From contig CAVTUR010000004.1 in assembly GCA_963737945.1 (NCBI GenBank), positions 63,211-127,210 on the forward strand: a stretch of DNA of 64,000 bases. Reading direction: 5' to 3'. This DNA comes from Blastocatellia bacterium. Its GTDB lineage: Bacteria > Acidobacteriota > Blastocatellia > UBA7656. The first letter of the stretch is position 1; every line of letters begins with the position of its first letter. Below are positions 331 to 63,395 of the stretch, piece after piece. The notes beneath the pieces are model-generated. The model ran no database searches. It saw only the letters and a program-made list of their open reading frames with translations, and was not told where the DNA came from. The translations under genes were made by a program, and so were the position numbers.

Positions 331-2235
331 CTATTGCCGCTTTTCAGGCGTGATTTTCAACGTCATATCCTTACCATCGCGCCGAATTACCACTTCGACT
401 TCTTCGCCGCCTCGCATTTCGCCCAAAGCATAGGTGTAATCGTAGACGTTCTTGATCGGCATCTTTCCGAGCTTCACAACGAAATCACCGGCGCGCAATC
501 CGGCTTTTTCGGCGGGCGAACCGGGCCGCACGCCGTCCAGCTTCATGCCGTCGCTCTGATCGGAGTAGTTGGGCACGGTTCCGAGATATACTCGAAACCC
601 TCTTCCGGTTGGTCTCTGTTCCACCTTTACCTTGGTGAATGCGATCCGCTGGGGTTCGTTCGCTACTGAGACCGCAATCTCGCGCACAAACTCGGCGACC
701 TGCTTCAATCCTTCGGCGTTGATCTTGTCAGCGGTGTCCGAGGGTTTGTGATAATCGTCGTGAGTGCCGGTGAAGAAAAACAGCACAGGGATATCTCGAA
801 CATAGAATGATTGGTGGTCGCTGGGTCCGAAACCATCCTCGCCGAAGCTGAGCTCAAAGCGGCTTGCAGAAGCAGGTCCGGCGGTGCTGGCAGTCGGCTG
901 GGTTTCGCCGTTCAGCTTCTCGATCAGGGGCTTCCATGTGGGCGACGTGCCGACGCCTCCTATAAACAACGACCCCTTGCGAAGCCTGCCGATCATGTCC
1001 ATGTTCAGCATGGCGACGGTTGTCGCCAGCGGAATGACCGGGTTCTTGGTGTAGGCTCCCGATCCCAGCAGCCCCAGCTCTTCGCCACTGAAGGCGATGA
1101 ACATTATGCTGCGTTTGATTTTGCCTCGCTCGCCGGCAAGCACTCTTGCGATCTCAAGCAGTCCTGTGGTTCCCGAAGCGTTATCATCCGCTCCGTGATG
1201 AATTTCACCTTCAGGGTTTGCCGCCAGCGACTCCGGCCCGCCCAGCCCCAGGTGATCGTAGTGGGCCCCGATGACGACGTATTCAGACGCGAGTTGCCGG
1301 TCGCTCCCCGGGAGCACGCCGACTACGTTCGCGCTCTTGCCGTTGATCTTGACGACATCCGTCTTGAACTGAATAGTGATGTCCCTGGTCGAGAAAGCGG
1401 ATGCGGGTTCATTGGCCTTCGTTTCAGCGCCGGCTAGAGATGCGCCGCCCGAAGCCAGGATCGATCCGGCGGCATCGCGGCTGAGGATCGCCGTTGGGAT
1501 TCCGGAATCCAGGAAATTCAAGTCGTGCCGCAGGTGGGAAAGACGATCCTGGTGAAAGCTCTTCTCGGCGCTGACAAAGACAACGCCGCTGGCGCCTTTC
1601 TCTCTGGCTTTGAGGGTTTTATTTTGAATCTCGAGACCGGGCTGTGTGTATTCAGCAAACTTACCGTGCGGATTGTCGCCGTCTGGGCTGCCGCGCAGGA
1701 CCATCACGATCTTGCCCTTTGGATCAATCCCAGAGTAGTTGTCAAGGCCGAGCTCGGGCGCGCTGATTCCGTAGCCGGCGAAAACGAGTTCTCCGGCGGC
1801 GGGTTCAGAAGAAGAGAAGGCGAGAGGCATGAATTCTTCGCCGACTTTGAGCGCGCGAGTGCCGTTGGCCGACTTCACTTGAAAGGTGTTCTGCTCACCG
1901 AGCTTTACCGCTGAAACAAAGGTGAACGGCTGAAGAAACCCGGAGGTCGAGGCGGGCTTTAGTCCATAGCTGCGAAACTCTTTTTCGATGTACGCGGCCG
2001 CTTCATCGGCAAATTGTGTCCCCGCGCGGCGACCCTGCAGCTTGTCGGAAGCGAGAAACTGAATGTGTTTTGTGATGCGCTCAGTGGAGAGCTGCGCGGC
2101 CGCCGCTGCGCGTTGGCCTGTGTAGGCGTGGAGCGAAGGTGCGAACGCCGGACTCGTGTGGTTTAGTGCGAGCGCTGAAGTTCCGATTAGGAGTGCGATT
2201 GCAAAGATGAACGATCCTGATTTTCTGACTAGCAT
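331..2235 (-). CDS. Secreted M28 family aminopeptidase with PA and C-terminal PDZ domains
   Basis: Signal peptide; GAHYDHLG, GADDNASG, SGEELG, NMDMIG, SDH and YHKPSD M28 motifs; PDZ motif GSPAEKAGLRAGD. Confidence 0.92.
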   Translation of the reverse strand: MLVRKSGSFIFAIALLIGTSALALNHTSPAFAPSLHAYTGQRAAAAAQLSTERITKHIQFLASDKLQGRRAGTQFADEAAAYIEKEFRSYGLKPASTSGFLQPFTFVSAVKLGEQNTFQVKSANGTRALKVGEEFMPLAFSSSEPAAGELVFAGYGISAPELGLDNYSGIDPKGKIVMVLRGSPDGDNPHGKFAEYTQPGLEIQNKTLKAREKGASGVVFVSAEKSFHQDRLSHLRHDLNFLDSGIPTAILSRDAAGSILASGGASLAGAETKANEPASAFSTRDITIQFKTDVVKINGKSANVVGVLPGSDRQLASEYVVIGAHYDHLGLGGPESLAANPEGEIHHGADDNASGTTGLLEIARVLAGERGKIKRSIMFIAFSGEELGLLGSGAYTKNPVIPLATTVAMLNMDMIGRLRKGSLFIGGVGTSPTWKPLIEKLNGETQPTASTAGPASASRFELSFGEDGFGPSDHQSFYVRDIPVLFFFTGTHDDYHKPSDTADKINAEGLKQVAEFVREIAVSVANEPQRIAFTKVKVEQRPTGRGFRVYLGTVPNYSDQSDGMKLDGVRPGSPAEKAGLRAGDFVVKLGKMPIKNVYDYTYALGEMRGGEEVEVVIRRDGKDMTLKITPEKRQ

Positions 2236-6549: not shown

Positions 6550-7014
6550 TTATTTCTCGAACACCTTTCCGCGATCGCCAAACACTCGTGGGGCGCCGGC
6601 CAGCAGCCCCAGCAACACAAACGCAAGAAGGATTGCTGGTGTGGCTGTGCCGGCAGTTGTGCCTAGCATGATCGCGCGGCCCAGCGACAGAAACTGAGAC
6701 ACCGCCAGAGAAGCAAACAGCGCCCACCAGGCCCACTTCTCACCTCGCCGGTAAGGTATCCACGTAACCAAGATTGCCAGAAGACCATAGCCGAGCGCCC
6801 AGGTCGCTGCCGTAGCGCGCCTGCCCCGGAACGCCTTCACCGCCTGGTCTCCGCCCTGTTCTCCGATCTGGGTCAGCGTGTACTCACTTGTCAGCCTGTC
6901 CGCTCCGCCGGTATACGCGACCCCGAGCGACTGGGCCGACAATAGAACGATTGCCCCCGACACCACCAGCAGGATAACCCAGCTTGCAATGAACAACAGG
7001 TTTGTACCTCGCAT
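6550..7014 (-). CDS. Small integral membrane protein (about 4 TM), function unknown
   Basis: GGAGG RBS before ATG at 7014; hydrophobic segments; PYRRGEKWAWWAL motif. Confidence 0.7.
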   Translation of the reverse strand: MRGTNLLFIASWVILLVVSGAIVLLSAQSLGVAYTGGADRLTSEYTLTQIGEQGGDQAVKAFRGRRATAATWALGYGLLAILVTWIPYRRGEKWAWWALFASLAVSQFLSLGRAIMLGTTAGTATPAILLAFVLLGLLAGAPRVFGDRGKVFEK

Positions 7015-8549: not shown

Positions 8550-9983
8550 CTATGGGTTTGAGGCGCGACGCGGGCGGTCGCGTTGCAACACAGTGTCGTT
8601 CGCGCGTGGGCGGCCCGACATGCGCCACTCGATGCGCTTGATCGCGACTGTTGCAACGTCAGCAGTCGAAGCGCTCGATGTCCGCACGACCGGCTCCAAT
8701 TCCTTTATCGTGTCTTGATCGCCTATGAGTCCAAGTATCTCGATGACCTTTCGGCGGACCTCTTTGCTGCTCGATCGAACGTGTGGGTACAGATCCACTG
8801 CGTTGGATTCCAACAGGTAAGCATGCGCCTGCTCTTCCTGGTCGGTTTCGAGCTTGCGGACGACGTACTGCATGTTTGCGGTGCTACCCATTTTGTAGAG
8901 CGCCCAATACTCCGCGAGCTTCACGTCGCCGTTTTTCTCGGTCAGCACCAGTCGCGAAATCTGATCCAGGTAGCGGGGATCGGCTATTCGAGCCAGCCCT
9001 TCGATCGCGTATTGACGGCGGTCACCGTCTTTGTCGGTGATGTTCTCGACAAAAGTTTGCTCGGCCTTCTCGTCGCCGATCAACGACAGCGCCCACAGAG
9101 CCGCTTCGTCGCGCGGCGGCAGGTAGGTAAACCGCCCTTTCACTTTGTCGCCAACCATCCTGAAGGTACCCTTCTTCTCAGGACCCAAACCGTAGACAGA
9201 TAGCAGTGGCTCAACCGCGGGCTTGTACTTGAGCATCCCAGCAGCCACCATCGCCTGTGTCCTGACCTTGTGATCTGAGTCGCGGAAGAACGGAGTGAGG
9301 TGCGGACCGGCCGACTGATCGCCGATCTTGATAAACGCGCGCAGAACCTCGATTCGAAGATCCTCATCCGCGTTTAGAGCGTCTGCCAGTTGCGGAATAG
9401 CGGCCGCGCCACGCAGCACGCCGATTGCGCGAATAGCGGATACGCGAACATCGCGCTCAGCGTCGCCGTGCGCTGATTCCCCAATCGCGGTCACGATGGC
9501 GGGATCGACGGTTATGTAGGGTTCGACAATCTCGTGGTCGCTGGTGTCCAGGAATGGGTTAAAGAGGTTCCAGCCCGCGCGCCTGTTGGTGATGAAGTCA
9601 ATGTCGTGCTCGGTATACAGCGCCACCAGCGACTTGATTGCGGCGTTGCGCACATCTGTTATGGGATCTTTGAGCGCGTCGATCATCTCGGGTAGCGCGG
9701 CGAAGTCTTTGATCATTCCCAGCGACTGGAGCGCTTCAGCGCGCACATCGGGGTCTTCATCCTTGCGAGCGGCCACTGCAAGGGCTTCGACCGCGAGTTG
9801 ATTGCGGACTCGGCGTTCCCCCAGCTTGTGGGCTGCATCGCGGCGCGTGCTCGAATTGGGACTCTTGAGATAAGCAAGGAGAGTTTCAAGCGACTGGGTC
9901 TCTGCGGGCACAGCGACGATGAGTGTCAACAAAGCCACAACGAGCGCTGCTATGTGCACGAACGTCTTCTTGTTTGAAGGCAT
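8550..9983 (-). CDS. Exported HEAT-repeat protein
   Basis: N-terminal signal/TM segment; repeated L.D.D..VR..A..ALG units. Confidence 0.85.
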   Translation of the reverse strand: MPSNKKTFVHIAALVVALLTLIVAVPAETQSLETLLAYLKSPNSSTRRDAAHKLGERRVRNQLAVEALAVAARKDEDPDVRAEALQSLGMIKDFAALPEMIDALKDPITDVRNAAIKSLVALYTEHDIDFITNRRAGWNLFNPFLDTSDHEIVEPYITVDPAIVTAIGESAHGDAERDVRVSAIRAIGVLRGAAAIPQLADALNADEDLRIEVLRAFIKIGDQSAGPHLTPFFRDSDHKVRTQAMVAAGMLKYKPAVEPLLSVYGLGPEKKGTFRMVGDKVKGRFTYLPPRDEAALWALSLIGDEKAEQTFVENITDKDGDRRQYAIEGLARIADPRYLDQISRLVLTEKNGDVKLAEYWALYKMGSTANMQYVVRKLETDQEEQAHAYLLESNAVDLYPHVRSSSKEVRRKVIEILGLIGDQDTIKELEPVVRTSSASTADVATVAIKRIEWRMSGRPRANDTVLQRDRPRRASNP

Positions 9984-10135
9984 GACAAACTCCTGGATAG
10001 GGACTACTGGTCCTGCGGAATACGCAAACTTTGGGGGTTAGGTTGGGAACCTGTCCTTTCGCAGACATTGTTGTACTCGAGCACGGTTTAGTCAAGCTGC
10101 AAGTGTCTGAAACGAGACGAAGAGGAAGTGAGTCC

Positions 10136-10208
10136 GTGATGCTGCAACCTACAGATCAGCCGCGCATCAACGTTTCGCGTTTCTTTGCATACCCACTTCG
10201 TGAGAAGT
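10136..10208 (-). repeat. Inverted copy of the ~77-bp REP-like unit, interrupted by the IS (continues at 11980-12004)
   Basis: Reverse complement reads ACTTCTCACGAAGTGGGTATGCAAAGAAACGCGAAACGTTGATGCGCGGCTGATCTGTAGGTTGCAGCATCAC, matching the 12039-12278 units. Confidence 0.9.
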
Positions 10209-10222
10209 TCTATGAAAGGGCT

Positions 10223-10228
10223 TGTCAA
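10223..10228 (-). promoter_or_regulatory. Outward -35 box (TTGACA) of the IS circle-junction promoter; the -10 (TAATAT) is at 11971-11976
   Basis: In-silico circularisation gives TTGACA-agccctttcatagaacg(17 nt)-TAATAT pointing into the transposase. Confidence 0.85.
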
Positions 10229-10371
10229 GAAAAAACTTTCCCCTGGCCGGCGGTCGATCTCCTTTTCTCCACAGCCAGCCCCCGGTGTGTGTTTGCCGCG
10301 CAACTTCAGCGATCGATGGACCTGAGCGCGAAAGGCCTGTGGTCGATAGACATAGACCTAGTAGTAGCCGT

Positions 10372-10520
10372 GCTGTGGGAACTGTGGAAAACTCGGAATG
10401 GAACGGAGTGGAATGGAGAGTTTTCCAAGCCGCTGTGGGAATGTGGAAAATCACTGAGGGATAGTCGCCCTTCCTTATGTTGATTTTCCACATTCCCACA
10501 GCGGCGTCAGTTTCCACAGC
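10372..10520. repeat. Nested palindromic (multi-stem) element inside the IS non-coding end
   Basis: Perfect 25-bp IR 10429-10453/10481-10505; TGGAAAACTC/GAGTTTTCCA at 10385-10394/10418-10427; outer GCTGTGGGAACTG/CAGTTTCCACAGC. Confidence 0.85.
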
Positions 10521-10629
10521 TTTCCCGCCTGCGTCGTGGCCGTTTTTACGTGTCTGCCGCATTCGACTGCAACTGCGTCGGTTCGTTTCCCTGAGTCATC
10601 CTTAAGCAGTTACCTGTTGCTATCCTTAG

Positions 10630-10812
10630 GAGGATGCTAACCACAGTTCTATCTGAGCCTTCTGCGCTACAGCTTTATCCGGTTAATGCGAGGGGGCATA
10701 TAGTGGGTCATGGTACTCAATGCGGTTCGCGCTTCGGCACAACTTCTCACTTGATACTCTCCCTCGACCTTTGCTCAGGCAACTCCGATCTGCAGTCGTT
10801 TGCTTGGTCACT
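10630..10812 (-). ncRNA. Predicted bridge RNA / seekRNA of the IS1111-type recombinase (ends approximate)
   Basis: Internal loop carrying GUGAGAAGU (rc 10742-10750) and UGACCCAC (rc 10703-10710), which match the two halves of the insertion target; second loop carrying AUAGAAC (rc 10646-10652), which matches the donor junction. Confidence 0.85.
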
Positions 10813-11898
10813 TCAGCCTGTCTGGTCGCCTGCGCTTTGTTCTGCTTGATTCACTCTTATGGGATCGAACTTTTCTCCTTTCTTCCAAACTGCCAACGAT
10901 ATTGCTGCGATCTTTCGGGCAACGGTTAACTGCGCCATTTCTGGTCGCATTTTGTTATCGATCAGTCTCTGGTAGTACTTGTTGAACGGTTCCCTCTTTA
11001 TCGCGGTGATTGCTGCTCCTTTGTATACAGCTTTCAACATCCGATTGAAGTTTTTGTTTAGTCCCCTGGTCTGCAGCGCCTTCTTTCGTCTTTGACGGCG
11101 TCCGTCTACTATCTCGTATTCGCCGCTCATGTGTGTCACTACCGCCAATCCACAGTACGCCCAGTATTGCCTCTTGGTCCGAAATCGATGTGGTGTCCCT
11201 ACCGTCGCGATAACGGTTGCTGCTCGGATCGCACCCAAACCCGGCACCTTACATTGAAGCTTGTATCCTTGATGCTTGTGTGCCTCATCAATCATTGCTT
11301 TGAGTGCCTCCTTGCTCAGCTCGTTCAAACTCTTCATCTGTTTGTAGAGAAGATCTGCTCGAGCCCGCAGTGATACGGTTTCTAGTTTCTCTTTCCACTC
11401 TTCACGCGTTTCCTGGCTGTAAACCGACTGACCCCGGCACGTTATCGCCCGCCCTCTGAACAGTCCTTTCAGTCGATTCTTTGTCCTCGTCCTGTCTTCC
11501 ACTAACCGAATGTATCCCTGAACCAATTCCTTCAGTCCTTTGATACTCTTGTCCCCGTGATAAACCGATTCCAGTTCTCCCAATCTCAAAAGCCTCGCTA
11601 GCTTCTTCGCATCAACTCGGTCCCCTTTGCTTCCTGACTGAATCAGCTTGTTCTTCCTAGGGTCGCAGACCACTGTTTTTGCCACTAACGGTCGCACGAT
11701 CTCGTACAACCATCCACTAGCGCATCCCTCCTCGAACGCTACGTGTACCCTCCCATCCAGACCTTTGAAAAACTGTCGGATTGCTTCCGCATTCATCCCC
11801 AGAAAAGTCTCCATCAAAAACTCACCTTTTTCGTCCGTTACGTACGCAACGATGGTTGATTTATCTACATCCAGTCCTACATACTTGTCTCTGTTCAT
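10813..11898 (-). CDS. IS110 family recombinase/transposase (DEDD RuvC-like domain plus C-terminal Tnp domain)
   Basis: YVGLDV, AFEE and KGDRVDA acidic residues; VPGLG; YCGL...SG catalytic serine; VARK. Confidence 0.95.
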   Translation of the reverse strand: MNRDKYVGLDVDKSTIVAYVTDEKGEFLMETFLGMNAEAIRQFFKGLDGRVHVAFEEGCASGWLYEIVRPLVAKTVVCDPRKNKLIQSGSKGDRVDAKKLARLLRLGELESVYHGDKSIKGLKELVQGYIRLVEDRTRTKNRLKGLFRGRAITCRGQSVYSQETREEWKEKLETVSLRARADLLYKQMKSLNELSKEALKAMIDEAHKHQGYKLQCKVPGLGAIRAATVIATVGTPHRFRTKRQYWAYCGLAVVTHMSGEYEIVDGRRQRRKKALQTRGLNKNFNRMLKAVYKGAAITAIKREPFNKYYQRLIDNKMRPEMAQLTVARKIAAISLAVWKKGEKFDPIRVNQAEQSAGDQTG

Positions 11899-12038
11899 AG
11901 GGCTTCTCCTCTCGCCTAGTCTTGACTTCTTTTACGCGTCAATAACTATCACGAAAGGGGCGGCCCTTTCATATTACGTGGGTCTGGTGATGTTCTAGCC
12001 TACGACGCACTCCACGGGGTGCCACACAGCCCGCAACA

Positions 12039-12278
12039 CCACTTCTCACGAAGTGGGTATGTGCAGAACGCGAGACCTTGGCGCGCGGTTGTAGGCTGCA
12101 GCATCACTTGACCCACTTCTCACGAAGTGGGTATGTGCAAAGGGAGACCTTGACGCGCGGCTGATCTGTAGGCTGCAGCATCACTTGACCCACTTCTCAC
12201 GAAGTGGGTATGTGCAAAGCGCGAGACCTTCGCGCGCGGCTGATCTGTTGTAGGCTGCAGCATCACTTGACCCACTTC
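12039..12278 (+). repeat. Tandem array of about 3.1 copies of a 73-82 bp REP-like unit with hairpin ACCCACTTC-TCAC-GAAGTGGGT
   Basis: Units start near 12039, 12111, 12188 and 12270; each also has GTAGGCTGCAGCATCACTTG. Confidence 0.92.
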
Positions 12279-12466
12279 ACACGTCTGCACCGCCAACTGT
12301 TGACAACTGGCGTGAGTCGCCGTATTAATGTCGAGACAAGGCACACACCCAAGGGAAATCGAAGTCAGACATTTGACCTGAAGCCCCCCAACGGTAAGTC
12401 CGGCTTCAAATTTGCAATATCTTTGAGGACGCAGGATTTGTTGGTCCGATGAAAGGGGGGAGTTGG

Positions 12467-12667
12467 ATGAGTGCTCACGTGATCGATCTTGGTCCTGCGG
12501 TGGCCTCAGTTGTTGAGGAAGTCGATCGTTCTGAAGCTGGAGTAACTGAGGACAACCAGAACAATCTCAACAAAATACGACTCGAGATCCTCTATCAACT
12601 CTACTTCGCTCCGGAGCCTACGCCGGAGAGGATTGCGATGGAGGAGTTCCTTTTGGAGTGCGATTGA
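12467..12667 (+). CDS. Small hypothetical protein
   Basis: GGGAG upstream of ATG; plausible acidic 66-aa product; no recognised motif. Confidence 0.45.
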   Translation: MSAHVIDLGPAVASVVEEVDRSEAGVTEDNQNNLNKIRLEILYQLYFAPEPTPERIAMEEFLLECD

Positions 12668-12919
12668 GCCGCTCCTGGCATAGGGCATTTTTGCGGAGCC
12701 AGCCTACCGTATTGGGAAACTTTTACACGCTCGAGGAGCAGTTAAGACCCTTCTTGGAAGTGGCGTTCGATAGATTGCAACAGCATTCTGCTACAACCTC
12801 CTAGCCGCTCGCCTTTTTTTCTTCCCTTCCTTTGCCAGCCGAGCGCCAGCCACATGAGCCACATCGGGAGCGTCAGTAATAACTCATACAAAGCGTGCGA
12901 GCAGAGGCGGTTCGGTCCT

Positions 12920-13243
12920 CTAAGACTTTTGCTTGTCGCGCAACCGCCCGAGCGTGCTCTCGATCAATCTGTTCAGCTTGTCTGTAGCGCCCTCTACCGC
13001 TTCGTCCAGGGTCGCTGCCTCGTGAGTGACCGCTATGGGTTTGAGGCCGCCGAGGCGGGCTTCCATCATACAGCGCTTGTCCGTCGGTCCCCTCTTGTGG
13101 CTGTTCTCATCGCTCAGGTGAACTTCAACTCGCGTAATGCGATCGCTGAATCGGCTCAGGGCGCTCTCCACCAGACCACTAACCTTTCCGCTCAACGCCT
13201 CGTGCCCCGCAATGTTATGGTCCGTGTTGATTTGTATCTGCAT
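12920..13243 (-). CDS. HPF/RaiA family ribosome-associated protein
   Basis: MQIQINTDHNI...RITRVEVHLSDEN...DKRCMMEAR; AGGAG RBS. Confidence 0.88.
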   Translation of the reverse strand: MQIQINTDHNIAGHEALSGKVSGLVESALSRFSDRITRVEVHLSDENSHKRGPTDKRCMMEARLGGLKPIAVTHEAATLDEAVEGATDKLNRLIESTLGRLRDKQKS

Positions 13244-13309
13244 GGTCCTTCTCCTGTCCTCATTTTGATTAATGGCGCTCGGTGTGCTCATCAGGGTGCG
13301 TCGACGCGG

Positions 13310-13672
13310 CTAGGCTTCCTCCAGCCATTTTCGCGCTTCGACGGCATCAGCATGATCGAAGTATCGGATCGTCGCTCTTGTGAACGGCTTGCAGAACGTC
13401 GCCATGCCCTGCTCCCACACCTTGTCGCCGATCATCGCGAGGCGTTCGATGTCCGCGAAGTGCTTGAGGTCGAACTTGATATCCTCCCATAGCGCGCCGA
13501 CTTCCCAACCGTGGAAACCGATCATATCGAACAGTACGCGCAGCTTTCCGTGCTCCCGGACCAGACGCTCGAACTCGGGCACAAACTGCTCGTAGTCCGA
13601 CTTTACCAGCTTCCCGCTGACGTGAACGGCGAGCACCTTGCCGCCGCTCTCTTCTTTGAGTTGAATTGGCAT
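13310..13672 (-). CDS. STAS/SEC14 (SpoIIAA-like) domain protein
   Basis: VSGKL..SDYE...GKLRVLFDM..FHGWE..ALWEDIKFD..H...IERLAMIGD..W family pattern. Confidence 0.85.
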   Translation of the reverse strand: MPIQLKEESGGKVLAVHVSGKLVKSDYEQFVPEFERLVREHGKLRVLFDMIGFHGWEVGALWEDIKFDLKHFADIERLAMIGDKVWEQGMATFCKPFTRATIRYFDHADAVEARKWLEEA

Positions 13673-13772: not shown

Positions 13773-16144
13773 CTAAGTGTTATTCCGGCTCCACTGCCAG
13801 TTGCGGATTTCCGGCATGTCTTCGCCGTACTTGCGTATGTATTGCTTGTGCTCGATCAGCTTGTCCTTGAGCTGCTGCTTTACGTAGATGCCCTTGTCGC
13901 CGGTTTGGGGCAGTCGGTCGATTGCGTCCATTACCAGGTGGAAGCGATCCAGATCGTTCAGCACGGTCATGTCAAACGGCGTTGTGATGGTGCCTTCTTC
14001 CTTGTAGCCGCGGACGTGTATGTTCTCGTGGTTGGTCCGCCGGTAGGTCAGCCGGTGAATCAACCAAGGGTAGGCATGAAAGGCGAAGACGACCGGTTTG
14101 TCTCTGGTGAAGATCTCGTCGAAATCCCTGTCACTCAGACCGTGCGGGTGCTCGGTTTGCGGCTGCAGCTTCATGAGGTCGACAACGTTGACCACCCGGA
14201 TTCTCAAATCGGGCAGATGCTCGCGCATGATGGAGACAGCGGCGAGCGTCTCAAGCGTGGGAACGTCGCCGCAGCAGGCCATCACCACATCGGTGGCTCG
14301 GCCCTGGTCGTTGCTGGCCCATTGCCAAATGCCGATGCCCCCGGCGCAGTGTTTTTCGGCCGCGTCCATCGTCAGCCATTGCGGCGCCGGGTGTTTGCCG
14401 GCGACGACGACGTTGACATAATGCCGGCTGCGCAGGCAGTGATCCATGACCGACAGCAGACAGTTGGCGTCCGGTGGCAGGTAAACACGCACAACCTCGG
14501 CCTTCTTGTTTGTGACGTGGTCGATGAAACCTGGATCCTGATGGGTGAAGCCGTTGTGATCCTGGCGCCAGACATGCGACGCCAGCAGGTAGTTTAACGA
14601 CGCGATCTTTCGCCGCCACGGCAGGTGCGATGTGACCTTCAGCCATTTGGCGTGCTGGTTGTACATCGAATCAACGATGTGAATGAATGCCTCGTAGCAA
14701 TTGAACAGCCCGTGCCTTCCCGTAAGGAGGTAACCTTCCAGCCAGCCCTCGCATTGGTGCTCGCTGAGCATCGAGTCGAGCACGCGTCCTGTGGGAGCGA
14801 GAAATTCGTCGTTCGACAGGGTCGCGCCATCCCACTGACGGTTGGTCACCTCAAAGAGCGCTTCGAGGCCGTTGGAGAGCGTCTCGTCGGGGCCAAAAAC
14901 CCGGAAATTCCTCTGCTCGTTGTTCAGCTTCGCCACATCGCGCAGGAAATTCCCGAGCACATGCGTGTCGCCTATTCCGCGCACCCCGGGTGAGGTCACG
15001 TCGACCGCATAGTCGCGGAAATCGGGCATCCGCAGATCACGGAGGAGAATGCCACCGTTGGCGTGAGGATTCGCGCCCATGCGTCGTTCGCCGGTGGGCG
15101 CAAGTTCGGCCAGCTCCGGTTTCAGGCGGCCCAGATCATCGAAGAGTTCCTCCGGCCGATAGCCCCTGAGCCAGTCTTCCAATAGTTTGAGATGATCGGG
15201 GTGAGTGGCCGGGTGGAGGGGAACCTGGTGCGAACGGAAGGTGCCTTCTACCTGCAAACCATCTACGATCCGCGGCCCGGTCCAACCCTTTGGTGAGTTG
15301 AGAACGATCATCGGCCAGCGCGGACGGGTCGCGTCGCCCTGGTCCCGAGCGTTTCGCTGAATTTGTTTGATCTGCTCAACCGCCGTATCGAGCGTCGCGG
15401 CCATTGCCTCATGCATGAGCTCAGGCTCGTGGCCCTCGACGAAATAAGGGGCCCATCCGTAGCCGCGGAGTAACTGCTCCAATTCCTCGCGGGTAATTCG
15501 AGCGAGAATAGTCGGATTGGCAATCTTGTAGCCGTTGAGATGCAGGATCGGGAGCACCGCGCCATCGGTGACGGGATCGAGAAACTTGTTGGAATGCCAC
15601 GCCGTAGCCAACGGGCCTGTCTCTGCCTCGCCATCGCCGACGACGCAGGCGACGATGAGATCGGGGTTGTCGAACACCGCTCCGAACGAATGGCTAAGCG
15701 AATAACCCAGCTCGCCACCCTCGTGGATCGACCCCGGCGTCTCCGGCGAGGCGTGGCTGGGAATGCCTCCGGGAAACGAAAACTGGAGAAAGAGCTTCCG
15801 CAGACCGTCCTCATCCTGGCTGATGTCGGGATAGATCTCGCTGTAAGTGCCCTCGAGATAGGTATTGGCCACAACAGCCGGGCCGCCATGCCCGGGGCCG
15901 GAAACATAAATCATGTCGAGGTCATACTTTTTGATGATCCGGTTCAGGTGCACGTAGATGAAGTTCTGTCCGGGGTCGTACCCCAGTGCCCCAGCAGCAT
16001 TCGCTTCACGTCGGCGAGCGCAAGCGATCGCTTCAGCAGCGGATTGTCATAAAGAAAAATCTGCCCGACTGAGAGATAGTTGGCGGCGCGCCAGTAGGCA
16101 TCCATCTTCTGAAGCATTTCCGCGGAGAGAGCGTTTGTCGTCAT
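13773..16144 (-). CDS. xfp: Xylulose-5-P/fructose-6-P phosphoketolase; one frameshift near 15970
   Basis: [22 protein letters not shown](G), [33 protein letters not shown]; one missing base in the CC/GGGG run at ~15970. Confidence 0.93.
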
Positions 16145-16271
16145 GGTTTGGTCCTCCCGCTGCTTTCTTCCTGGGTTTGGTGTTGTTGCCCGATTGAGAG
16201 TGCGGTGAGTGATCGGATTCACCGTGATCTGCACGGGAGTCAACAGACATCGCGCTCGTGCTTATCCTCCA

Positions 16272-20288: not shown

Positions 20289-20321
20289 CGGCGATATCGA
20301 CAAATTGAAGGTTGACGGAGG

Positions 20322-62785: not shown

Positions 62786-63395
62786 TGAATGGATGGGCCA
62801 TTTTCTGAGTCGCGCTCGCGGCGTTTTGCCTGCTCAGTTGGCTGTAGTAGTCGTAGACATAGTTCTTCAGTTCGGTGTGGAAGAAACCCTGGAGGAATCC
62901 TTTCTCGAACTTATACTGCTTCATCTCGGCATAGGCCCGATCAGCCGTCCAGCCGTCGTGCGCCATGACGATAAATAGCCGTCATCACTCCGGTGCGGTG
63001 GCGGCCCACATGACAGTGGACAAAAACCGGCTGGTTAGCCGGATCATTAACGATGGCCAGAAATCGGGCGACATCCTCGGACGAAGGTTTGGACCTTGAG
63101 GACAATTCGATCCGATAGAATCGCAGTCCCAGTGATTCCACCATGGCCGGTTCGTCCGCGCTTTCGCCCCACAGGTCTACTACGGATTTCACGCCTCGCG
63201 CGGCCAAGTCGGCATAGTCATTCTTTTTTGGTTGAGCGCCCCGATATAGTTCTCATTGATACGACCGAAATTCTCTATTTGTATCTTCGAGATCCTATCA
63301 TTGAGCGGGGACTGGGCAGTTGATAACGCGGCAAGCGATAGGATAAGGGCTAACGACGGCGCAATGGCACGAGGGAAGCTTTGATTCACACGCAT
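62718..63395 (-). CDS. Secreted protein-tyrosine/dual-specificity phosphatase, two frameshifts
   Basis: Signal peptide, NFGRINENY, P-loop HCHVGRHRTG, GWT...AYAEM across three ORFs. Confidence 0.8.

Follow-up and report, generated by a model that had tools for sequence, protein, structure and literature searches.

Structure of the element and its insertion site

We examined a stretch of 64,000 nucleotides, here called the window, from contig CAVTUR010000004.1 of a Blastocatellia bacterium (assembly GCA_963737945.1, contig positions 63,211 to 127,210). This study concerns an insertion sequence in this window for which an earlier reading of the DNA had predicted exact boundaries, a 2-bp GT core, and scarless insertion of the IS1111 type into a repetitive extragenic palindromic (REP) sequence. 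The element lies on the minus strand, contains a single gene for an IS110-family transposase (recombinase), and interrupts one unit of a repeat that is also present as a tandem array next to it. The element and the repeat array occupy a long intergenic region (9984-12853) between divergently oriented genes. The coordinates of the individual features are listed in Table 1.

Direct reading and a script both placed the dinucleotide GT (AC on the element strand) at each of the two junctions where it had been predicted. Outside the GT the bases at the two junctions are unlike, to the left (AGT vs CGT) as well as to the right (TC vs GG). The duplicated or ambiguous sequence is therefore limited to exactly these 2 bp, and no target duplication extends beyond them; the absence of a long target-site duplication had also been part of the original prediction. 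The perfect 11-bp inverted repeats are subterminal and sit at the expected distances of 2 and 4 bp inside the cores. The terminal extensions are asymmetric, with 6 bp at the left end, counting the core, and 2 bp at the right end. In an end-to-end junction of the element, 8 bp separate the two subterminal repeats, vs 9-10 bp in the IS1111 family. No further copy of either element end was found in the window, and a megablast search of plasmids with the whole element as query returned zero matches.

In silico deletion of 10209-11979 brings 10191-10208 next to 11980-11984. The resulting 23-mer is the reverse complement of both 12110-12132 and 12187-12209 in 23 of 23 bases, so the claimed exact correspondence to the neighbouring unit stands. 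When we say that excision rebuilds the site, this is a bookkeeping operation, namely the deletion in silico. The restored hairpin has a 9-bp stem, whose arms (10191-10199, and 10204-10208 joined to 11980-11983) are perfectly complementary, and a loop of 4 nt (10200-10203). The earlier description of a perfect palindrome with a GT core is correct as far as the perfect 9-bp stem is concerned; the loop is non-palindromic, however, and the GT falls within one arm of the stem and not at the centre of symmetry.

The local alignment of the restored unit with the neighbouring unit crosses the junction unbroken, running from 12006 to 10136; the similarity had been predicted to continue to about 12004. 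The right-hand 27 nt of the interrupted unit match the neighbour at 21 of 27 positions without gaps. With up to three mismatches allowed, a 22-nt pattern describing the hairpin occurs four times in the window, and in none of 100 shuffles. The intact hairpin sites are at 12039, 12113, 12190, and 20323; together with the interrupted one, they fall in two intergenic regions.

The transposase and its nearest relatives

In searches against Pfam, the protein had significant matches to DEDD_Tnp_IS110 (PF01548; E-value 5.4e-18; 65.7 bits, cut-off 29) and Transposase_20 (PF02371; E-value 3.3e-12; 47.1 bits, cut-off 21.3). It also passed, marginally, the cut-off of the NCBIfam model NF033542, "IS110 family RNA-guided transposase" (147 bits vs 140). 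Among sequences of the PDB, it matched ISCro4 (9t56; E-value 3.5e-9) and IS621 (8wt6; E-value 4.1e-8). Both matches are limited to the C-terminal half, and the match to IS621 spans only residues 150-350 of the query.

A scan of genome contigs returned three relatives with 50%, 47%, and 29% identity (L001, L002, and L003), and none closer than 50%. The 29% match is partial, and L003 was left out of the analysis. We aligned the protein from the window with seven relatives. E56, E57, D93, and D96 are invariant in all eight sequences, a serine or threonine is kept at position 258 in all eight, and D10 is kept in each of the seven sequences that have the N-terminus. S258-G259 aligns with the SG of the ISCro4 and IS621 transposases. 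The conserved acidic and serine positions include those regarded as catalytic in the literature. In all eight aligned proteins, valine takes the place of the proline in the GL-P----S(t)G motif.

A candidate guide RNA

The non-coding region downstream of the transposase gene was scanned against the restored target, and two matches of at least 8 nt were found. The first contains guide 1, GTGAGAAGT. The second lies 41 nt downstream of GTGAGAAGT and contains guide 2; this match is 8 nt long and extends to 10702. The two segments are opposite in sense, overlap at the core, and are sited in an internal loop of the predicted RNA. Jointly they specify GACCCACTTCTCAC, a target of 14 bp read as 5+2+7, and they give the predicted 2-bp core and boundaries independently of the junctions. 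To assess the ordered pair, we used dinucleotide shuffles of the non-coding region and counted a segment of at least 9 nt followed by one of at least 7 nt, both covering the core and no more than 90 nt apart. Such a pair was found in 1 of 20,000 shuffles.

The code GACCCACTTCTCAC includes the asymmetric loop of the hairpin, and a hairpin can therefore serve as a target in one orientation only, in agreement with the orientation of the element relative to the repeat array. Two perfect and unoccupied copies of the 14-bp target (12110-12123 and 12187-12200) are within 210 bp of the element. Imperfect copies have one mismatch (at 6730 and 12269) or two mismatches (at 20320); the last of these is within a second, solitary copy of the repeat.

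The non-coding regions of the window element, L001, and L002 have a common core of 130-170 nt. In the predicted RNA, an outer stem (10754-10767/10688-10699) is followed by the internal loop, in which the two target guides are arranged around a variable stem. A second stem (10680-10685/10638-10643) encloses the loop with a donor-like heptamer, and a terminal hairpin ends the RNA. The consensus fold of the three sequences contains 44 pairs, 18 of which are kept despite changes on both sides. The heptamer, ATAGAAC, is the likely right-end guide of the element. It is invariant at the same column in all three elements and therefore contributes no covariation evidence. The apical loop of the first domain contains the tetramer GAAC in the window element and L002 and lacks it in L001. 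As for the left end, the best candidates for a guide need three G-T wobbles in 6-8 positions, and the wobble-rich matches at the 3' edge of guide 1 in the window element and L002 are weak; these candidates were rejected.

Table 1. Positions of the element, its parts, and the surrounding repeats in the window.
Feature	Position	Strand	Remarks
Whole insertion sequence	10209-11979	minus	1,771 bp with one copy of the core (equivalently 10207-11977); a full repeat unit results from its deletion
Core dinucleotide GT (AC on element strand), right-end junction	10207-10208		covered by both guide segments
Core dinucleotide GT, left-end junction	11978-11979		direct reading and script
Subterminal inverted repeat, right end	10211-10221		11 nt, 100% complementary; 2 bp from core
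Subterminal inverted repeat, left end	11963-11973		11 nt, 100% complementary; 4 bp from core
Transposase (recombinase) gene	10813-11898	minus	361 aa; only long open reading frame of the element
Non-coding region	10209-10812	minus	604 nt downstream of the transposase gene, vs 81 nt upstream
Predicted seekRNA/bridge-RNA region	10600-10770	minus	conserved in L001 and L002
Guide 1, GTGAGAAGT	10742-10750	minus	complementary to the core and the adjoining 7 nt of right flank (top strand in element orientation)
Guide 2, GACCCAC	10703-10709	minus	same sequence as the top strand over 5 nt of left flank and the core; would pair with bottom strand
Donor-like heptamer, ATAGAAC	10646-10652	minus	exact match to the terminal 5 nt of the right end followed by the core
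Nested-hairpin module	10372-10518		in non-coding region; very stable; absent from L001 and L002 (unaligned insert)
TTGACA, putative -35 half of junction promoter	10223-10228	minus	outward-facing; 17 nt from TAATAT in the end-to-end junction
TAATAT, putative -10 half of junction promoter	11971-11976	minus	just inside the left end
Terminator-like hairpin	11950-11973	minus	10 pairs, T-rich tail; overlaps left inverted repeat
Interrupted repeat unit, left part (plus-strand view)	10136-10208	minus	inverted relative to the array at 12039-12283
Interrupted repeat unit, remaining part	11980-12006	minus	from local alignment
Tandem array	12039-12283	plus	3.2 copies of a 77-bp repeat unit

Guides and targets in related elements

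The element L002, from an Acidobacteria metagenome-assembled genome (MAG), is complete, and its protein is 48% identical to that of the window element in the alignment. Its ends can be aligned to those of the window element; they have the same geometry of terminal extensions, and both junctions carry AC. In the alignment columns of the two guides, L002 has CGGTAGTGT and TTGCAAC. These fit the different flanks of L002 itself in the same 7+2 and 5+2 pattern, which was found in none of 20,000 shuffles. In cross-controls, the non-coding region of the window element was compared to the target of L002, and vice versa, and nothing was found. An uninterrupted, inverted copy of the L002 target (1699-1712, minus strand; 13 of 14 bases) is located about 90 bp upstream of that element and mirrors the inverted arrangement in the window.

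The element L001 is from a Pyrinomonadaceae MAG and is without its left end and about the first 20 codons; at 1220-2500 it abuts the 3' end of a gene for a Tn3-family DDE transposase (PF01526, E-value 7e-122). Guides that change with the target are consistent with two of the three elements, the window element and L002, and not with the truncated L001.

In a clustering of proteins at 90% identity, the window protein is the one member of its cluster, on one contig of 144,445 bp, and the nearest other cluster is 88% identical. At least 119 further clusters have identities of 54-88%; these are mostly from metagenome contigs of 1-3 kb. One Pyrinomonadaceae name is present among the protein relatives listed.

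Assignment of the element

The traits described as separating IS1111 from IS110 elements are a non-coding region downstream of the gene and 11-bp subterminal repeats (PMC11187229, PMC11208160); the subterminal inverted repeats of IS1111 elements are given as usually 11-13 bp, with a range of 7-17 (PMC11187229). In the window element, as in L001 and L002, the longer non-coding region is downstream of the transposase gene. The order of the guides also matches IS1111, with the top-strand guide 5' of the bottom-strand guide, when the strand in the orientation of the transposase gene is taken as top. Two long open reading frames in the non-coding region (10167-10562, minus strand, and 10031-10483, plus strand) both cross an end of the element and had no match in Pfam. 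The DEDD transposase, the 11-bp subterminal repeats, the downstream non-coding region, and the guide order all support the IS1111-type assignment in the original prediction. The analogy drawn there to IS621 holds for insertion into a REP-like hairpin at a 2-bp core; however, IS621 belongs to the IS110 group, and ISPa11, an IS1111 element, is closer. We conclude with high confidence that the element is intact and belongs to the IS1111 type within the IS110 family, and that it entered a REP-like hairpin through conservative, RNA-guided, site-specific recombination at a 2-bp core.

Several observations weigh against this conclusion. The NCBIfam cut-off is exceeded by only 7 bits, the transposase has 361 aa vs the 330-350 aa given for the IS1111 family, and the 6/2 extensions depart from the 7/3 (occasionally 6/3) given for IS1111 elements. 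A single copy of this element was examined. L002, which agrees, is the sole informative locus among the three related ones, and L001 provides one counter-example, in that the flank of its right end, CGCGATT, mismatches its guide, GAGATAAGT. The count of covarying pairs comes from three sequences, and the single-sequence fold of the RNA region is unremarkable (z-score -1.8; 10 of 200 shuffles were as stable). A search of 9500-13000 against Rfam 15 in E-value mode matched no family. For a left-end guide, neither exact matches of at least 6 nt nor a wobble-tolerant search of the non-coding region gave anything convincing. Production of the RNA and activity of the element are predictions from the DNA sequence.

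The departures in end geometry and protein length, and the valine shared by all eight aligned proteins, are also what one would expect if the element belonged to a separate, unnamed, deep lineage of the IS110 family that has an IS1111-like layout and falls outside IS1111 proper. Such a lineage would use the same mechanism in outline, with a different end geometry and a different recognition of the donor. The distance to known elements points in the same direction. The best plasmid-borne relatives are only 29% identical, and all plasmid-borne relatives are below 30%; all 228 plasmid records with E-values of at most 1e-10, and all 1,695 with E-values of at most 1e-3, are below 60% identity. The named elements among the plasmid matches are ISHvo9, ISEc45, and ISSso6. 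The nearest of these is ISHvo9, at 28%; the supplement of Durrant et al. (PMC11208160) places it in a cluster with ISHvo10, an element described as "more diverged" by Siddiquee et al. (PMC11187229). Among the rows examined of supplementary file 2 of the former study, those with the same C-terminal motifs have an empty column for the ISfinder name (PMC11208160). Against a separate lineage, the published IS1111 traits are all present (11-bp subterminal repeat, 3' non-coding region, and top-strand guide first). We consider placement outside IS1111 rather unlikely.

A second rival interpretation replaces RNA guidance with recognition of the hairpin by the protein. The guide matches might be captured fragments of the hairpin, or chance matches, with the protein reading the hairpin to choose its target. 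A target that is a repeated hairpin makes stray fragments plausible, and guide 2 alone was found in 1,103 of the 20,000 shuffles (guide 1 alone in 63); furthermore, the stem-loop of the ISPpu10 target is reported to add specificity beyond base pairing (10.64898/2026.03.19.712850). However, the ordered pair is rare in the shuffles; its two segments are opposite in sense, overlap exactly at the core, and lie inside an internal loop between stems with compensatory changes. In addition, L002 has different segments at the same columns, and these fit a different and unrelated target. We therefore regard recognition by the protein without guides as very improbable.

The GT could also be read as a 2-bp target duplication from staggered, DDE-like cuts instead of a core common to donor and target; sequence alone does not separate the two, and the ISPpu10 preprint terms its CT a "2-bp target-site duplication" (10.64898/2026.03.19.712850), but we give this reading hardly any credence, as the enzyme is a DEDD/serine recombinase and not a DDE transposase, and the dinucleotide is part of each guide segment. 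The right end is also followed by this core in the heptamer of the second loop, as expected if a circle carries the core, and Siddiquee et al. assign one copy of such a "duplication" to the element itself (PMC11187229).

Junction promoter and proposed mechanism

If the two ends are joined, TTGACA from one end and TAATAT from the other form a putative promoter. The corresponding hexamers in the junction of L002 are TTGACA-18-CATTAT. In the integrated state, no sigma-70-like site was found in 10100-12100, where 1.2 were expected. The terminator-like hairpin at the left end would be complete only in transcripts that enter from outside, whereas a transcript from the junction promoter should start inside it; we infer that the hairpin may block read-through expression.

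The following steps are modelled on published experiments with ISEc11, ISPa11, ISKpn4, and IS621 (PMC11187229, PMC11208160, PMC13626964). The element would leave as a circle, whose abutted ends would form the TTGACA-17-TAATAT promoter. This promoter would transcribe the recombinase gene and the RNA downstream of it, and the RNA would be trimmed and bound by a tetramer of the recombinase. The first loop of the RNA would pair with both strands of GACCCACTTCTCAC in the target hairpin, while the second part would pair with the ends of the element. Strand exchange at the AC core would then insert the circle in one orientation; each side would receive a single copy of the core, without any longer duplication. 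Siddiquee et al. describe the formation of IS1111-type circles without an equivalent re-joined target, and the fate of the donor site, as not established (PMC11187229).

Comparison to characterized elements

Insertion into REP hairpins is already established in the family for IS621, ISPpu9, ISPpu10, and ISPa11 (PMC11187229, PMC12288879, 10.64898/2026.03.19.712850). Two of these, ISPa11 and ISPpu10, are closer analogues of the window element than IS621. ISPa11, an IS1111 element of Pseudomonas aeruginosa, has REP targets, comparable to the REP-like hairpin in the window, and likewise has subterminal inverted repeats and a 3' non-coding region (PMC11187229). Its seekRNA co-purifies with the transposase, and the top-strand match is 5' of the bottom-strand match, as in the guides of the window element (PMC11187229). 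The window element differs from ISPa11 in its host, its 6/2 extensions, and its 604-nt non-coding region with an extra hairpin module; the two are likened by description.

The pair ISEc11 and ISXne4, also IS1111 elements, provides a precedent for the comparison between the window element and L002: the stems of the RNA are kept, while the target-matching segments differ to fit the respective targets, which was termed "natural reprogramming" (PMC11187229). The identity between ISEc11 and ISXne4 is 72%, compared to 48% between the window element and L002. IS621, an IS110-group element of E. coli, shares with the window element the DEDD recombinase, the 2-bp core, and a code of about 14 nt; it inserts into REP sequences, and its RNA has target and donor loops that address both strands (PMC11208160). 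In contrast to the window element, IS621 encodes its RNA upstream of the gene, with the guides in reversed order, and has inverted repeats of only 2-3 bp (PMC11208160, PMC11187229).

ISPpu10, an IS110-group element of Pseudomonas putida, inserts into REP hairpins, its targets are often arranged as close, convergent pairs between genes, and the hybrid promoter of its circle is strong (PMC12288879; 10.64898/2026.03.19.712850). The stem in ISPpu10 uses the 5' extension of the target; in the window, the 5' arm contains the core and the left half and pairs with sequence on the 3' side of the insertion, so that the arrangement is mirrored. IS4321 and IS5075, of the IS1111 type, resemble the window element in their subterminal inverted repeats and asymmetric terminal extensions. 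They reportedly insert, in an orientation-specific manner, into one arm of an inverted-repeat target, going by the title of a paper by Partridge and Hall from 2003 that is cited in PMC11187229. Unlike in the window element, the target is the terminal repeat of the Tn21 family, and the extensions are 7 and 3 bp.

The mechanism is well known already, and the knowledge of how the family works is unchanged by our findings. What is new is the lineage, which is without a characterized member; no literature search was aimed at this lineage. For it, we provide base-exact ends, the core, the 14-bp target code, and a candidate guide RNA. The lineage appears to be common in soil metagenomes. Elements of this kind serve as starting material for programmable bridge-recombinase tools; pairs found in nature whose guides differ, such as the window element and L002, reveal which positions of the RNA can be reprogrammed. 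For annotation, the repeat array in 9984-12853 can be described as a landing pad with two more perfect, unoccupied sites.

A nested hairpin module in the non-coding region

The module has perfect arms of 25 nt (10429-10453/10481-10505), further copies of the same motif of about 19 nt, and a run of GGAAT pentamers (10395-10417). Its predicted folding energy is -97 kcal/mol (z-score -8.7), and none of 200 shuffles was as stable. Five matches to microRNA models in the Rfam search, with 21.5-33.4 bits vs gathering scores of 72-100, were all to this nested hairpin and were rejected. The module holds three of the four matches to TTWTNCACA, a consensus of the DnaA box, in the window, where 2.3 matches are expected. 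The three matches are copies of one repeated motif and are therefore not independent. The module could be a small passenger or hitchhiker like ssr9 of ISPpu9, a nested miniature element, or a regulatory module.

We suggest only tentatively, and with more doubt than confidence, that the element represents an unnamed and widespread soil lineage of bridge/seekRNA recombinases. This lineage would be characterized by an IS1111-like layout, its own 6/2 end geometry, a 5+2+7 target code, and a target hairpin that is the mirror image of that of ISPpu10; in this copy, the RNA-coding region would also carry a hyper-stable hairpin passenger of about 150-190 nt with three DnaA-box-like motifs.

Neighbouring genes

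The intergenic region is flanked by a gene for a HEAT-repeat protein (8550-9983, minus strand) and by an open reading frame without a Pfam match (12854-13492, plus strand). Further along, a phosphoketolase gene on the minus strand is seemingly split by a frameshift near 15950-16000 (15944-16261 and 13773-16046). One frame encodes about the first 60 residues, ending in a GHWGTTP-like motif; the other 726-757 residues are in another frame. The match to the Pfam domain XFP_N begins at position 62 of the profile, and homologues have about 790 residues. Matches of 84-92% to the phosphoketolase bear names from several phyla (Acidobacteriia, Gammaproteobacteria, Planctomycetota, Armatimonadota) and thus do not place the host. 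The split could be due to a sequencing error, or the gene could be a pseudogene.

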